A stretch of DNA of 7,531 nucleotides from a virus. Lineage: Duplodnaviria; Heunggongvirae; Uroviricota; Caudoviricetes. The position numbers and the translations under genes are program-made. This document shows, piece by piece, positions 2,820 through 7,531 of the stretch. Position 1 is the stretch's first letter. Each line of letters starts with the position of its first letter. The DNA lies in the IMG/VR virus record IMGVR_UViG_2529292715_000018; one strand, 5' to 3'. The notes beneath the pieces were generated by a model. That model was not told the origin of the DNA, did not search any database, and worked only from the letters and a program-made list of their open reading frames with translations.

Positions 2820-3566
2820 ATGAAAAATATTGCGACAGGAGGCGTTCTGGAGCGTATCCGCAGACTGACCCCACCACATGTAACCGCCCCATTCAGAACG
2901 GTTGCGGAGTGGCGCGAGTGGCAACTTGCTGAAGGCCAGAAACGTTGCGAGGAGATCAACCGCCTGAATCGTCAGTTGCGGGTGGAAAAAATTCTGAACC
3001 GCTCCGGCATCCAGCCGTTGCACCGGAAGTGTTCGTTTGCGAATTACCGGGCGCAGAACGACGGTCAGCGACATGCACTGAGTCAGGCGAAATCCATAGC
3101 TGACGAACTGATGACAGGCTGTACGAATTTTGTGTTCAGCGGTAAGCCCGGCACCGGAAAAAATCATCTTGCAGCCGCGATTGGCAACCGGCTGATGGCG
3201 AAGGGGCGTAGCGTGATTATCGTCACCGTGTCCGATGTCATGAGCGTGTTGCATGAGAGCTACGACAACGGCAAATCCGGTGAAAAATTTTTACAGGAGC
3301 TTTGTGGTGTTGACCTGCTGGTCCTGGATGAAATTGGCATGCAGCGGGATACGAAAAACGAGCAGGTGGTACTGAACCAGATTGTTGATCGCCGGACGGC
3401 ATCGTTACGCGGTGTGGGGATGCTGACAAATATTAACCATGCAGCGATGAATACACTTCTCGGCGAGCGGGTGATGGATCGCATGGTCATGAACGGCGGG
3501 CGCTGGGTGAATTTTAACTGGGAGAGCTGGCGTCCGAATGTTAGCCATTCGAGGGTTGTTAAGTAG
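2820..3566 (+). CDS. DnaC-like helicase loader / phage replication protein (AAA+ ATPase, IstB/DnaC family)
   Basis: Walker A FSGKPGTGKNHLAAAIG and Walker B DLLVLDEIG. SD AGGGGG upstream. Sits immediately downstream of the initiator gene, the usual phage O/P-like pairing. Confidence 0.9.
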   Translation: MKNIATGGVLERIRRLTPPHVTAPFRTVAEWREWQLAEGQKRCEEINRLNRQLRVEKILNRSGIQPLHRKCSFANYRAQNDGQRHALSQAKSIADELMTGCTNFVFSGKPGTGKNHLAAAIGNRLMAKGRSVIIVTVSDVMSVLHESYDNGKSGEKFLQELCGVDLLVLDEIGMQRDTKNEQVVLNQIVDRRTASLRGVGMLTNINHAAMNTLLGERVMDRMVMNGGRWVNFNWESWRPNVSHSRVVK

Positions 3567-3580
3567 TTTCAGGAGGATTT

Positions 3581-4003
3581 ATGGCGAAACCTTTTACTCC
3601 CGAACAGCGGGAAGAACTGAAGACGCGAATTGTGGAACTCGTGCATCAGGACGGTCGGGTCACGATTCGGCAGTTGTCAGATGAAACAGGTATCAGTCGT
3701 GCGTCTGTCGGTCGCTTATGCATGGAACTGGTCGCAAGTGGTGATGTATATAATTCTGGCTACGGGGTATTTCCCTCTGAACAGGCTCATAAAGACTGGC
3801 AAAACGCCCGCAAAAAGCTATCGAGGGTAAAGGTGAAGAAACCGGTTGTGGTTGATCCTGACCTTATCTGGTCATTACCAGACGGAGAAATACGCCGCTA
3901 CGACAGGCGCCTGAATATAATCTGTCGCGAGTGCCGGAAGAGCGAAGCTATGCAGCGCGTGCTGGCGTTTTATCAGGGGAAATTTCAGGAGGCGGTACTG
4001 TGA
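3581..4003 (+). CDS. Ren-like protein (winged-HTH N-terminus; C-terminus resembles lambda Ren)
   Basis: Strong SD (CAGGAGG) 6 nt upstream. C-terminal ICRECRKSEAMQRVLAFYQGK resembles lambda Ren VFKECRQSAAMKRVLAVYGVK as recalled. Position directly after the P-like gene matches lambda ren. Confidence 0.75.
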   Translation: MAKPFTPEQREELKTRIVELVHQDGRVTIRQLSDETGISRASVGRLCMELVASGDVYNSGYGVFPSEQAHKDWQNARKKLSRVKVKKPVVVDPDLIWSLPDGEIRRYDRRLNIICRECRKSEAMQRVLAFYQGKFQEAVL

Positions 4004-4060
4004 GTAAAATTAGCTATCAGGCTTCAATTACCGCTGGTATTCGCATCAAAGGAGAGGAGC

Positions 4061-4417
4061 ATGGAAATAAAACCAGAAGATGAGTTAAGCAATATCGTTT
4101 TATTTCCGGTAAAAGAGGATGACCCACGTAATCAGGTTAATTTTCTTTATGAACCATCGGAAAGACCATATTGCCATCACGCCTCTGTCCGGGTTGACGA
4201 AAAAGAGCGTCAGGTCCGCTGTAAAATCTGCGGTGCGGTTGTGGAGCCGTTTGACTGGATGCTCTCTGTGGCAAAAAGAGAAACCAGACTGGCAGATGAT
4301 GTAAGGCTATTGCGCCAGGAGGAACAGGAAAGGCGGAGAAATATAGAAAAGCTGATACAGATTGAGCGTAACGCGAAAGCGCGGATACGCAGGGCGACAA
4401 AATCCAGAACTGAATAA
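4061..4417 (+). CDS. Hypothetical phage protein, putative zinc-ribbon (CHH...CxxC) with basic coiled-coil C-terminus
   Basis: SD AAAGGAGAGGAG upstream of ATG. Motif YCHHASVRVDEKERQVRCKICGAV. C-terminal region rich in R/E/Q. No family recognised. Confidence 0.7.
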   Translation: MEIKPEDELSNIVLFPVKEDDPRNQVNFLYEPSERPYCHHASVRVDEKERQVRCKICGAVVEPFDWMLSVAKRETRLADDVRLLRQEEQERRRNIEKLIQIERNAKARIRRATKSRTE

Positions 4418-4509
4418 TTAAATTTAGCACTGTTAAAAATTTAATCCTTAACCGGAGGGATTTCTGCACCCTCAAATCATCAGGAGACCGCCCGAAAGGG
4501 CGGTAATGA

Positions 4510-4728
4510 ATGGTTACATTATTTAGAAAAAAATATCCGCGAAAGAGTAGAACAACAGAATTCCTGTTTCTCATTCTGTTTATCGTGTTGATGACACCGA
4601 TATCCCCGCTAATTTTTGTCTGGATAATCGGAAAAATAATTGAGCCAGTTATTGAATTGTATAACGACGTGGTATGGGCGTCATTCAACACACTGCACAA
4701 TAAAATTAATCCGTATAAGGAAAGCTGA
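4510..4728 (+). CDS. Putative small membrane protein (72 aa, one predicted TM helix) in an AT-rich islet
   Basis: Basic N-terminus (RKKYPRKSR) followed by hydrophobic FLFLILFIVLMTPISPLIFVWIIGKII. Local GC clearly lower than flanks. Putative SD AAGGG sits inside a hairpin. Could be a non-coding spacer instead. Confidence 0.4.
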   Translation: MVTLFRKKYPRKSRTTEFLFLILFIVLMTPISPLIFVWIIGKIIEPVIELYNDVVWASFNTLHNKINPYKES

Positions 4729-4729
4729 T

Positions 4730-5164
4730 ATGGCACTGACGAAAAAACAACGTGCAGAACTGCGCATGAAGTTCGGTGGTCGCTGCGCTTATTGCGGCTG
4801 CGAACTTGGCGAAAAGTGGCATGCAGACCATGTAAAACCGGTCATTCGTTTTGATGGAAATATGCTTCACCAGGAACGTGACGATATATCCAACATGGTA
4901 CCAGAATGCCACCCATGCAATCTGCACAAGCATTGCAGTAGCCTAGAAGATTATCGACGAATTATCAGTGATGGTCGTCGTGAATTCCTTGCGTCCGGGA
5001 AAGGCAAAGCGCTGGTTCGTATGGGATTGGTTGAAATGAAATCTGACCCGGTTGTGTTCTGGTTTGAAAAATATCAAGAAGGGGCTACGGCATGGCCACT
5101 ATTACCAAAGAGCGACTGCAATGGCTGGCTAACATTTCTGGCCGCGATGATATTGACGATATAG
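4730..5164 (+). CDS. HNH endonuclease
   Basis: Motifs CAYCGCEL, HADHVKPV and PECHPCNLHK fit the HNH pattern. SD AAGGAAA upstream of ATG at 4730; the ORF track start at 4640 is probably an over-extension. The 3' end overlaps the next gene by 73 nt in another frame. Confidence 0.85.
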   Translation: MALTKKQRAELRMKFGGRCAYCGCELGEKWHADHVKPVIRFDGNMLHQERDDISNMVPECHPCNLHKHCSSLEDYRRIISDGRREFLASGKGKALVRMGLVEMKSDPVVFWFEKYQEGATAWPLLPKSDCNGWLTFLAAMILTI

Positions 5165-5757
5165 ACGGCGGTGAAATTCGTGAACTGGCGCTTATCGCTC
5201 TGGCATCACTGGAAGCAGAGCCTGTAGCGGAATGCATTGTTGAAGATGGGGGCATGTGTATTGACGGGTTCGGTGAGTATGTGGGTCACTCGCTGCCTGA
5301 TGGAATGCATGAGCTTTATGCTGCCCCGCGAATGCGACAACCTGATGGATGGAAAGCCGTAGCTGTAGCGTGGAAGGTGACGTTTACTCAAGTTGACCAG
5401 GAATCTAATACGTTCACTGCTATATATTTTGACAAAGCGGAAGTTGAGCGTTGGGTACGACTGCATAAAGCATGTGATTTTCGGGCAGATATAACACCGC
5501 TTTACGCAGCGCCGGCAGTGCCGGTTGCAGTAAACGACGACATGGCTTACGCATTCCATCACGCACTGTCAGATTCATCGCTTGGCTCTGGTGAAATCGA
5601 AGAAATTAAAACCGGTTTGCGTGCTGCCTTTGCCAACGTCACTATCCAACCAGAGCCGATAGTGCCGGATGAAATCGGGCCAAACGATAGTAATACGTTT
5701 GATTATGTTGATGGCTGGAACGCCTGCCGCGCTGCCATGCTTAAGGGAGATAAATAA
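5092..5757 (+). CDS. Hypothetical phage accessory protein (221 aa), acidic N-terminus, internal LYAAP repeat
   Basis: SD AAGAAGGGG 7 nt upstream of ATG. Stop overlaps the start of the next gene (TAATG). No confident family assignment. Confidence 0.7.
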   Translation: MATITKERLQWLANISGRDDIDDIDGGEIRELALIALASLEAEPVAECIVEDGGMCIDGFGEYVGHSLPDGMHELYAAPRMRQPDGWKAVAVAWKVTFTQVDQESNTFTAIYFDKAEVERWVRLHKACDFRADITPLYAAPAVPVAVNDDMAYAFHHALSDSSLGSGEIEEIKTGLRAAFANVTIQPEPIVPDEIGPNDSNTFDYVDGWNACRAAMLKGDK

Positions 5758-6122
5758 TGATTAATCGAACCAAACTGGAGCACATTCTCGAATATGCCAG
5801 GCAGCAGAAATGTATTGGGCAACTTTGTAAAATTCCACCAGGAGATATGGTTGAAATCGTGGAAATGGCCATGCGTAAGGCTGGCAACTCTCCGGTAACT
5901 CTGGCTGGCTGGATAAGCTGTAGTGATGCAGTTCCTGCTGAATATTGCGATGTGATTCTTCTCGATGATCTCGGGAATGTATTCCCCGGTTCCTGGGATA
6001 AGGTTTTTTGCCCCACTCGTGGCGGGAATAAGATGGCTTTTGTGGACAAAGACGGCGTTGAAGTAGAGAGCTCAACTCACTGGATGCCGCTACCGGAACC
6101 ACCGCAGGAGGTGAATCAATGA
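5757..6122 (+). CDS. DUF551-domain phage protein
   Basis: C-terminal THWMPLPEPP and GWISCSDAVPAEYCDVILL match the DUF551 pattern as recalled. Translationally coupled to the upstream gene. Confidence 0.8.
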   Translation: MINRTKLEHILEYARQQKCIGQLCKIPPGDMVEIVEMAMRKAGNSPVTLAGWISCSDAVPAEYCDVILLDDLGNVFPGSWDKVFCPTRGGNKMAFVDKDGVEVESSTHWMPLPEPPQEVNQ

Positions 6123-6240: not shown

Positions 6241-6408
6241 AGGAAACAAAACAGAAACAGCAATTGCCGTTACCTGTTGTTACCATGGCAAGTAAACGTA
6301 TCTCAGGCGAGCGCATTGCGCCGTTCTGACGCAGATAAATTAGCCTGGATAGAAGGTGCTGGCAATAAAAAATAGCGTTTTCTTATCGGTATCGGTAAGA
6401 TTGCTGCG

Positions 6409-6420
6409 GGTGCTTGAGGC
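6409..6420 (+). promoter_or_regulatory. Putative 5' end of hok mRNA (tac-like element GGTGCTTGAGGC)
   Basis: Resembles the 5' end of plasmid R1 hok mRNA (GGCGCUUGAGGC) as recalled. Complementary to a 3' element at 6782-6793. A possible -10 (TAAGAT) lies at 6396-6401. Confidence 0.5.
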
Positions 6421-6454
6421 TGTCTGCCTCGGGCATGCCACTGTAAGGCAGACA

Positions 6455-6550
6455 GAGAAAAGCCCCAGTTAACATTACGCGTCCTGCAAGACGCTTAACA
6501 TTAATCTGAGGCCCAATCTATGTCTCACAAATGTAGGTTAGCCTCTTACG
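6455..6550 (-). ncRNA. Sok-like antisense RNA, putative; boundaries approximate
   Basis: By analogy with hok/sok loci the antisense RNA is encoded opposite the mok start and leader. An inverted repeat GCGTC...GACGC (6479-6494) and a T-rich stretch on the minus strand could form its 3' end. Promoter not confidently identified. Confidence 0.35.
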
Positions 6551-6732
6551 TGCCGAAAGGCAAGGAGAAGCAGGCTATGAAGCAGCAAAAGGCGATGTTA
6601 ATCGCCCTGATCGTCATCTGTTTAACCGTCATAGTGACGGCACTGGTAACGAGGAAAGACCTCTGCGAGGTACGAATCCGAACCGGCCAGACGGAGGTCG
6701 CTGTCTTCACAGCTTACGAACCTGAGGAGTAA
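6520..6732 (+). CDS. Mok-like reading frame (70 aa) containing hok in frame
   Basis: ATG at 6520 opens a frame running into and through hok, the arrangement recalled for chromosomal mokC/hokC. Confidence 0.55.
   Translation: MSHKCRLASYVPKGKEKQAMKQQKAMLIALIVICLTVIVTALVTRKDLCEVRIRTGQTEVAVFTAYEPEE
6577..6732 (+). CDS. hokD: Hok/Gef-family type I toxin (51 aa), HokD/RelF-like
   Basis: MKQQKAMLIALIVICLTVIVTALVTRKDLCEVRIRTGQTEVAVFTAYEPEE: single TM helix plus conserved RKxLCE...GQTEVA motif. Matches HokD (RelF) as recalled from memory. SD AAGGAG upstream. Confidence 0.85.
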   Translation: MKQQKAMLIALIVICLTVIVTALVTRKDLCEVRIRTGQTEVAVFTAYEPEE

Positions 6733-6799: not shown

Positions 6800-6823
6800 A
6801 AACCCGCTTCGGCGGGTTTTTTG
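6800..6823 (+). terminator. Rho-independent terminator of hok transcript
   Basis: Hairpin AACCCGC-TTCG-GCGGGTT followed by TTTTTT. Confidence 0.75.
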
Positions 6824-7007
6824 TTGCGTGCTGAATACGCAGGGTGAAAAATAACCATATATTTGATTATATACACAACAAAAAATAAAAGTCATTGTAC
6901 TTGCACATTAAACAATCAAATATACGGCGTGAAATAAATATTTTTCAGATTAATATTTTTGTCTCTATGTGGATATAACCGTTTGTACTTATAAACCTGG
7001 AGGCATC

Positions 7008-7220
7008 GTGGAGAAAATAAAGAAACTATTTAGTAGCAAATACGCAGTCATACGTCGTGATGACCTGTCAGTTATAGTCGAAATGGATTACTTCCCTGAA
7101 ACCCCAAAATCAATAATGTATCGTAATGGTCGAAAGGCAATTTTTTTACCGATGAGGGTAAGTGACATTATGGGAAATGATAAACTGCTGGATGAATTGC
7201 GAGTCAGAGCATCCTGTTAG
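7008..7220 (+). CDS. Hypothetical small protein (70 aa from GTG 7008; 83 aa if GTG 6969 is used)
   Basis: SD GGAGG 4 nt before GTG at 7008. Preceded by an AT-rich promoter-like region (6840-6990). Stop at 7218-7220, 2 nt before the IS1 terminus. Function unknown. Confidence 0.45.
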   Translation: MEKIKKLFSSKYAVIRRDDLSVIVEMDYFPETPKSIMYRNGRKAIFLPMRVSDIMGNDKLLDELRVRASC

Positions 7221-7222
7221 TA

Positions 7223-7531
7223 GGTAATGACTCCAACTTACTGATAGTGTTTTATGTTCAGATAATGCCCGATGACCTTGTCATGCAGCTCCACCGATTT
7301 TGAGAACGACAGTGACTTCCGTCCCAGCCTTGCCAGATGTTGTCTCAGATTCAGATTATGTCGCTCAATGCGCTGAGTGTAACGCTTGCTGATAACGTGC
7401 AGCTTTCCCTTCAGGCGTGATTCATACAGCGGCCAGCCATCCGTCATCCATACCATGACCTCAAAGGCCGACAGCAGGCTCAGAAGACGCTCCAGTGTGG
7501 CCAGAGTGCGTTCACCGAAGACGTGCGCCAC
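7223..7531 (-). mobile_element. IS1 element, partial (terminus at 7223; continues beyond window end)
   Basis: Terminus GGTAATGACTCCAACTTACTGATAGTGTTTTATGTTCAGATAATGCCCGATGAC matches the IS1 inverted repeat as recalled. InsB C-terminus is encoded on the minus strand. Confidence 0.9.
7238..7531 (-). CDS. insB: IS1 transposase InsB, C-terminal part (partial at window edge)
   Basis: [94 protein letters not shown] matches InsB with a few substitutions relative to the K-12 isoform as recalled. Confidence 0.9.

Follow-up and report, generated by a model that had tools for sequence, protein, structure and literature searches.

A hairpin between the Shine-Dalgarno sequence and the start codon of a prophage DUF4014 gene: a recurrent cassette junction and candidate split ribosome-binding site

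What role does a stable hairpin play when it stands directly in front of the start codon of a small prophage gene? This question is raised by a 7,531-nt stretch of DNA from a virus of the Caudoviricetes (IMG/VR record IMGVR_UViG_2529292715_000018; the window hereafter means this whole stretch), in which an AT-rich segment at positions 4418-4729 carries an open reading frame (ORF) for a 72-aa protein preceded by such a hairpin. The original prediction, which was made from the sequence alone, regarded the segment as a horizontally acquired moron whose hairpin hides the Shine-Dalgarno (SD) sequence of a small membrane protein. In this study, we analyzed the start region, its distribution among related phages and prophages, and the encoded protein, and found that the observation was largely right but its interpretation only partly so. 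The ORF belongs to the DUF4014 family, and the hairpin is part of a junction element of wide occurrence, which most likely serves as a natural split ribosome-binding site (RBS).

The hairpin lies exactly where it had been placed, at 4487-4504 on the + strand, and consists of a G+C-rich stem of 7 bp closed by a GAAA tetraloop (ACCGCCC-GAAA-GGGCGGT), with no U-tract behind it. Its predicted folding energy is -14.1 kcal/mol and the pair probabilities of the stem are 0.96-1.0. Four hairpins of comparable strength occur in the window, whereas dinucleotide-matched simulated sequences would lead one to expect 0.57; of the other three, two have T-runs behind them and appear terminator-like. On the other hand, the claim that this ORF has no SD-like sequence besides that in the loop and 3' arm proved incorrect, since a full AGGAG (4482-4486, + strand) abuts the 5' side of the stem. 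This AGGAG was assigned as the SD sequence on the basis of its duplex energy with the anti-SD (-7.4 kcal/mol) and its predicted accessibility (unpaired probability 0.83-0.98 for the last four bases, the first A being mostly paired at 0.13). By contrast, the SD-like AGGGCGGU of the 3' arm, whose bulged duplex with the anti-SD has an energy of -7.8 kcal/mol, is essentially always paired. Behind the stem, a 5-nt spacer without any SD-like triplet (AATGA, 4505-4509, + strand) leads to the ATG of the DUF4014 gene (4510-4728, + strand). The spacing between SD and AUG is 23 nt along the linear sequence and 5 nt with the hairpin folded. An out-of-frame ATG (4506-4508) also begins a 6-codon ORF (MNGYII*) 4 nt ahead of the real start, but it is unlikely to matter because it exists only in alleles with the AATGA spacer, the others having AAGAA or AATAA.

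We consider it about an even chance that DUF4014 is translated from a split, hairpin-bridged RBS of the type described for gene 38 of phage T4. In such a mechanism, the ribosome would bind AGGAG at 4482-4486, which is set apart from the AUG at 4510 by the stable hairpin and 5 nt; folding of the hairpin would cut the effective spacing from 23 to 5 nt, and the structure would permit translation rather than block it. A split RBS is recognized by a linear spacing above approximately 15 nt and by a folded spacing of 5-11 nt together with an accessible SD. Here, 23 nt separate the end of AGGAG (4486) from the ATG at 4510, and the in silico fold gives 5 nt with the SD predicted to be accessible. For comparison, the spacing is reduced from 22 to 5 nt for T4 gene 38 and from 27 to 11 nt for gene 25, and mutations that destabilize the hairpins lower translation (Nivinskas et al., 1999; Malys and Nivinskas, 2009; both as summarized in PMC3014915).

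The distribution of the element was analyzed in two ways. When loci were gathered through the DUF4014 protein, independently of the hairpin, they fell into two classes. Loci of the first class carried TC(A/G)GGAG-N-CCGCCC-GAAA-GGGCGG-T followed by 5 nt and ATG, and occurred in two unrelated upstream contexts. Those of the second class, which included Stx phages, were hairpinless and had AAGGAG or GGGAG, a 6-nt spacer (typically AGTGAT) and an ATG or GTG start; epsilon15 and g341c were hairpinless too, with a similar SD. Because the hairpinless alleles carry an SD plus 6 nt, the hairpin has the appearance of 18 nt inserted between an ordinary SD and an ordinary spacer. When viral contigs were searched for the AGGAG-hairpin unit itself (approximately 28 nt), it was found in at least two upstream contexts and before at least five downstream gene groups. 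The stem was followed by 5 nt before DUF4014, 6 nt before DUF7167, and 8 nt before two Ea22-like groups and the MQEIK protein, none of which has an SD of its own. The spacers lacking an SD-like triplet were thus all 5-8 nt long, and the sole 10-nt gap, before a Q-antiterminator homolog, holds a GGAG of its own after the hairpin.

In some phages, two copies of the unit lie approximately 1064 bp apart and flank cassettes; at locus L162, one copy precedes DUF4014, and the other comes after the zinc-ribbon gene and before DUF7167. In most related loci, the element occupies the intergenic region 3' of the zinc-ribbon gene, as it does in the window. Among 5426 complete E. coli genomes, 2470 carried its 34-nt core region, at 4211 places in total and up to six per genome, and no annotated feature lay under the element among the 40 matches listed. 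It was absent from divergent zinc-ribbon homologs of Kluyvera, Erwinia and Pantoea, and hence is lineage-specific. In the protein-chosen sample, the GGAG core was invariant in 31 haplotypes and diversity in the stem core was 0.01-0.03, compared with 0.118 at third codon positions; the hairpin-bearing alleles were still under purifying selection. A scan of 1.6 Mb of related loci for SD-hairpin-AUG arrangements of different sequence revealed no credible case. The unit is a conserved junction where different accessory genes join in E. coli and Shigella prophages, and cassette exchange probably also makes use of it as a short patch of homology.

Several observations weigh against a split RBS. Fifteen distinct variants of the hairpin included no double change and three one-sided, wobble-compatible changes, with three unpaired cells and 97.1% of cells paired. 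As no compensatory changes were seen, the conservation could be a DNA-level effect of recombination or gene conversion, and, because covariation is absent, a function at the RNA level is inferred rather than proven; the Kluyvera, Erwinia and Pantoea homologs, being devoid of the element, supply no divergent hairpins for such an analysis. Moreover, the Q-like context keeps the hairpin despite the gene's own SD, which means that the hairpin is not needed in every start region. Finally, in the folds predicted for some contexts, the SD is paired with a UCCU located upstream of it, or the AUG with A/U-rich sequence on its upstream side, so that accessibility of both appears to be context-dependent. 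In the window, the sequence upstream of the SD is an AT-rich intergenic leader (4418-4480, + strand; GC 0.333) that travels with the zinc-ribbon gene. Examination of its sequence, folds and composition showed an 8-bp inverted repeat made entirely of A and T (4418-4425 with 4437-4444), a UCCU (4446-4449) that is complementary to the SD and pairs with it in some predicted folds, and a weak 5-bp hairpin, GAGGG/CCCTC (4455-4459 with 4469-4473).

A conservation residing in DNA would suit a recombination linker, or a tolerated or selfish palindromic insert, which would be mainly DNA-level, neutral for translation and tolerated since it is looped out. We regard this as possible, if on the improbable side. 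It would fit the spread of the approximately 28-nt unit over at least two upstream contexts and at least five gene groups, the paired copies that flank cassettes approximately 1064 bp apart, and the lack of covariation, even the loop being conserved. The abrupt divergence of loci L205 and L207 immediately past GGGCGG points the same way, as does a second start-region sequence, ATTCGCATCAAAGGAGAG, which is likewise common to the zinc-ribbon gene of the window and to DUF4014 at locus L043. Relaxed recombination by lambda Red/Rad52-like proteins at short or diverged homology is documented (PMC2327257, PMC3945230). However, a linker leaves unexplained why the gap from stem to start is held at 5-8 nt in families without their own SD and why AGGAG always abuts the stem; besides, it is compatible with a split RBS and does not exclude it. 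The original prediction gave the hairpin another task, namely to hide an SD (GAAAGGG/GGGCGG) so that the membrane protein stays off until the structure opens. It is true that the 3' arm, 6-12 nt from the AUG, can pair with the anti-SD (-7.8 kcal/mol, including a bulge) and is completely sequestered, and that the fold predicted for the context of the window leaves little of the AUG unpaired (probabilities 0.47, 0.07 and 0.01). Nevertheless, the better accessible AGGAG adjoins the stem, and it is with this upstream AGGAG, not with the 3' arm, that the SD of the hairpinless alleles (AGGAG plus 6 nt) aligns. A stem of -14.1 kcal/mol would nearly silence the gene, yet hairpin alleles are under purifying selection, and no means of unfolding it is obvious because the upstream stop codon is approximately 70 nt away. 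With the best SD outside and accessible, and the same unit in front of at least five unrelated gene groups, including non-membrane genes, an SD-occluding hairpin specific to this ORF is unlikely and was not retained.

The element might also be read as a processing or stability element or a protein-binding site, that is, an mRNA stabilizer, an RNase site or an operator for a phage regulator such as the zinc-ribbon protein. The conservation of the loop sequence, the intercistronic position within a long early operon and the frequent location directly 3' of the zinc-ribbon gene would agree with this. However, no Rfam family was found at the locus even at E<=1, the element also follows a different upstream gene without an adjacent zinc-ribbon gene, and the zinc-ribbon homologs of Kluyvera, Erwinia and Pantoea do not have it; we consider such a role improbable, even more so than occlusion. 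Lambdoid phages carry terminators in their nin-like region, which are overridden by antitermination, and the stem is G+C-rich as a terminator or attenuator would require. On the other hand, no U-tract was seen on either strand in any context, the terminator scan of 3900-5200 returned no site, and a start codon lies 5-10 nt downstream in every instance, so that this explanation seems highly improbable. An intrinsic terminator was rejected accordingly, a stem being present with no T-run on either strand. A lambda-type nut site (boxB) was rejected as well: we take the nut consensus to be a boxA located a few nt ahead of a GNRA-like pentaloop on a 5-bp stem, close behind the early promoters, and inspection showed a tetraloop on a 7-bp stem, no adjacent boxA-like sequence and a position deep in the operon. 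Furthermore, the element occurs up to six times per genome before assorted genes. A split RBS remains the reading that we favor for the start region of DUF4014.

With regard to the protein itself, the ORF matched Pfam DUF4014 (PF13198) with 90 bits against a gathering cut-off of 23.2 (E=1.3e-25), residues 1-71 aligning with model positions 1-71 of 72, and PHROG 1832 with E=1.5e-44; no match was found in NCBIfam, and a sequence search of the PDB gave no relative at E<=1. A search of 5.8 billion proteins yielded 127 homologs, almost all of 72 aa, from Escherichia, Shigella and Salmonella. In a profile search of 1.84 billion representatives, only 22 matches were found, all from the same family, and thus the DUF4014 family is very narrow. 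The search for the 72-aa protein in other prophages also turned up many phage relatives, including 933W L0067, VT2-Sakai and many other Stx phages, g341c gene 23, epsilon34 gene 27, ES18 gp39, HK225 and D6; epsilon15 gp46 (NP_848254) shares 51% identity with the ORF protein (E=7e-20). Among 36 distinct coding sequences, dN/dS had a median of 0.17 and a pooled value of 0.20, and variable sites numbered 18, 13 and 36 at codon positions 1, 2 and 3, respectively. Synonymous and nonsynonymous changes are therefore far from equal, and purifying selection acts on the ORF, which is a real and conserved gene for a protein.

The basic N-terminus and single hydrophobic helix described by the original prediction were both found. 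Residues 1-16 have a net charge of +6, a hydrophobic stretch extends over approximately residues 17-41 (peak Kyte-Doolittle value 2.68), and the C-terminus has a net charge of -1. An AlphaFold2 model (pLDDT 82.7) contained a helix at residues 14-28, a kink at the conserved prolines P30-P33 and a second helix at 32-66. In a 24-member alignment, P33, W38, G41, E45, E49, Y51, D53, F59, L62, H63, N64, K65, N67, P68, Y69 and K70 were invariant, the most conserved part being the C-terminal W..F..LHNKINPYKE. Together, the model and the positive-inside rule suggest a single-pass inner-membrane protein with its N-terminus inside, whose conserved C-terminal helix and tail (LHNKINPYKE) would face the periplasm and could contact something there. 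A run of seven A residues (4527-4533) crosses codons 6-8 (AGA AAA AAA) and may be a slippage hotspot. One A of this run was lost in at least one related locus (L064), which is frameshifted, and two proteins (P0110 and P0113) had aberrant N-terminal regions consistent with frameshifts.

Cassette joints were found on both sides of the gene. At its 3' end (4717-4732, + strand), AAGGA (4717-4721) lies inside the last DUF4014 codons (Y-K-E) and is likely the SD of the next gene, the stop codon TGA occupies 4726-4728, and the ATG of an HNH endonuclease gene follows at 4730. Of 81 related loci, 80 had the next ORF beginning exactly 1 nt after the DUF4014 stop, even though these ORFs differed and showed no fewer than five distinct N-termini; the HNH endonuclease gene was the one that followed in 34 of the 81, as well as in the window, HK225 and BIS08P22. 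The conservation of NPYKE at the C-terminus may be due in part to the SD of the downstream gene or to a recombination joint. The start region of the zinc-ribbon gene (4039-4056; ATTCGCATCAAAGGAGAG) recurs directly before DUF4014, there with a GTG start, in loci of the L043 type. It represents a second shared start-region joint, suggesting that cassettes are generally swapped at SD-containing sequences. In addition, two loci, L205 from Shigella flexneri SFBU1023 and L207 from E. coli ECMA0423, were identical to the window through GGGCGG and then diverged completely (GGAGCAGTCACACATC...), the breakpoint falling precisely on the edge of the hairpin, right behind the zinc-ribbon gene. A bolder and rather doubtful possibility is that the unit is a portable "cassette adaptor", in which a structure-bridged RBS is combined with a preferred crossover point, perhaps recognized by a phage factor such as the zinc-ribbon protein. 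If this were true, early accessory genes would follow an integron-like logic in nearly half of E. coli genomes.

Is the segment a moron? Its low GC content was confirmed (0.375 at 4418-4729, compared with 0.492 for the window), and only 3% of all 312-nt spans were equally low, the lowest lying outside the segment at approximately 6844-7155. However, the low GC could not be taken as a sign of foreign origin, because GC at third codon positions (GC3) of the DUF4014 ORF, 0.425, matched that of the flanking genes: 0.437 for the zinc-ribbon gene, 0.427 for HNH, 0.428 for a 221-aa ORF and 0.459 for DUF551 (range 0.427-0.459). The deficit resides in the first and second codon positions (GC1 0.342, GC2 0.301), and thus the low GC of the ORF results from its amino-acid composition, which is rich in F, I, L, K, N and Y. 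The scan of 3900-5200 revealed neither a promoter-like nor a terminator-like site on the + strand, and antisense promoter-like matches were at chance level (2 found, 2.0 expected). What survives of horizontal acquisition as a moron is the mobile accessory cassette, as the DUF4014 gene occupies varying genomic positions with varying neighbors among lambdoid phages; a promoter and terminator of its own and a distinct silent-site composition do not. The gene is a cassette inside the early operon and not a classic moron. The lowest-GC part of the window is the region 6801-7220 (GC 0.32-0.34 at 6801-7100), which is more moron-like than the DUF4014 segment. A terminator-like hairpin followed by a T-run (6801-6818) stands just before the low-GC stretch, and an 83-aa ORF (6969-7220) has a GC3 of 0.357 and gave no match in PADLOC, the sole library scanned for it.

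As a working guess, the DUF4014 protein may be an early-expressed, single-pass membrane protein that plays a role in early lytic growth and whose conserved C-terminal segment would bind a protein of the host envelope, this binding being the weakest step of the scheme. No paper mentioning "DUF4014" or "PF13198" was found in the literature, searches by accession or locus tag returned unrelated matches only, and the homolog is not discussed in the epsilon34 paper. The label "O-polysaccharide acetyltransferase inhibitor" comes from an old epsilon15 annotation and was copied into g341c, HK225 and others; according to a 2022 review, the proposed epsilon15 inhibitors had not been investigated (PMC9558356). 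Most hosts of DUF4014 phages are not Salmonella group E1, and therefore a more general target is likely. The PHROG label "released from the phage upon host infection" could not be traced to any paper. As these labels are unverified, they should not be propagated. Small phage proteins that alter the O-antigen, Gnarl1-3, have been described (PMC12373910), and the DUF4014 motif, name and accession were absent from the supplementary files of that paper. PADLOC gave no match for the DUF4014 protein, for which the original prediction had suggested a possible superinfection-exclusion or toxin-like role. A type I (hok/sok-like) toxin was also considered and rejected: Rfam was empty at 4400-4750 at E<=1, antisense promoters were at chance level and no PADLOC match was obtained.

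The window comes from a lambdoid (Rac/Qin-like) prophage of E. coli or Shigella, in which it covers part of the early-right, nin-type region, and all genes from the YdaU-like replication gene to the hok/sok locus lie on the + strand. The YdaU-like gene (407 to approximately 830 and 2175-2813) is interrupted by an insertion sequence (IS) and is followed by a DnaC/IstB-like ATPase gene (2820-3566), a DUF977 gene (3581-4003) and the zinc-ribbon gene (4061-4417; 118 aa, PHROG 1621). Downstream of DUF4014 lie the HNH endonuclease gene (4730-5101; Pfam HNH 23.2 bits against a cut-off of 21.4, PHROG 2118 E=1.6e-55), the 221-aa ORF (5092-5757) and the DUF551 gene (5757-6122). The real small membrane toxin of the window is encoded by a complete hok/sok-type toxin-antitoxin locus (6408-6732), which has an Rfam sok score of 118 bits against a gathering score of 59 and a Hok-family ORF with its end at 6732. 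E. coli FDAARGOS_944 carries a near-identical stretch (99.8%), in which RefSeq labels the ORF "DUF4014 family protein". From the reading of ORFs, we take three regions on the - strand to be IS fragments or copies (1-303, 831-2026 and 7238-7531). The element at 831-2026, which splits the YdaU-like gene, presumably belongs to the IS3 family, with orfA/orfB-like ORFs, and the right end of the window appears to us to resemble InsB of IS1. Such a density of IS elements suggests that the prophage is defective and that its host is Shigella-like or an IS-rich E. coli.

The ORF itself adds nothing new, since its family is already catalogued; the membrane protein DUF4014 is narrow in distribution, strongly conserved and carried by prophages of medical relevance. 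With the SD 23 nt from the AUG, RBS finders would mis-score this very common prophage start region, as the original prediction did. If confirmed, it would be a natural split RBS outside the T-even phages that is reused by several genes. Furthermore, the element marks a recurrent mosaic joint, which may be useful for following the shuffling of accessory genes among Stx-type and Rac-type prophages.

Comparison with known systems places these findings as follows. The window ORF is a member of the DUF4014/PHROG 1832 family with no difference of substance, having a full-length match to the profile, 72 aa, the same layout (basic N-terminus, transmembrane helix and conserved tail) and a position in the early accessory (ea/nin-type) arrays of enterobacterial temperate phages. 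It resembles phage morons in being a small accessory gene with GC below its surroundings and a mosaic position, but differs in having no promoter or terminator of its own, in its tight coupling to the next gene and in a GC3 like that of its neighbors. With the O-antigen-altering proteins (Iap of D3 and epsilon15; Gnarl1-3, PMC12373910), which are small (40-90 aa) accessory phage proteins acting on envelope biosynthesis, it shares the size class and the fact that epsilon15 gp46 was once proposed for the same functional class, but no sequence relationship. At the RNA level, the inhibitory start-region hairpins of the T4 genes e, soc, 49 and I-TevI (PMC3014915) also combine a stable hairpin with an SD-like stretch buried in one arm; here, however, a stronger and accessible SD is located outside the hairpin, and no alternative transcript or trigger is evident. 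The split sites of T4 genes 38 and 25 were tested by mutation, whereas the present element is predicted in silico, without covariation. With them it shares an over-long linear distance between SD and AUG (23 nt here; 22 and 27 nt in T4) that is bridged by a stable hairpin; it differs in residing in a temperate lambdoid prophage, in having another sequence and in being portable among unrelated genes.

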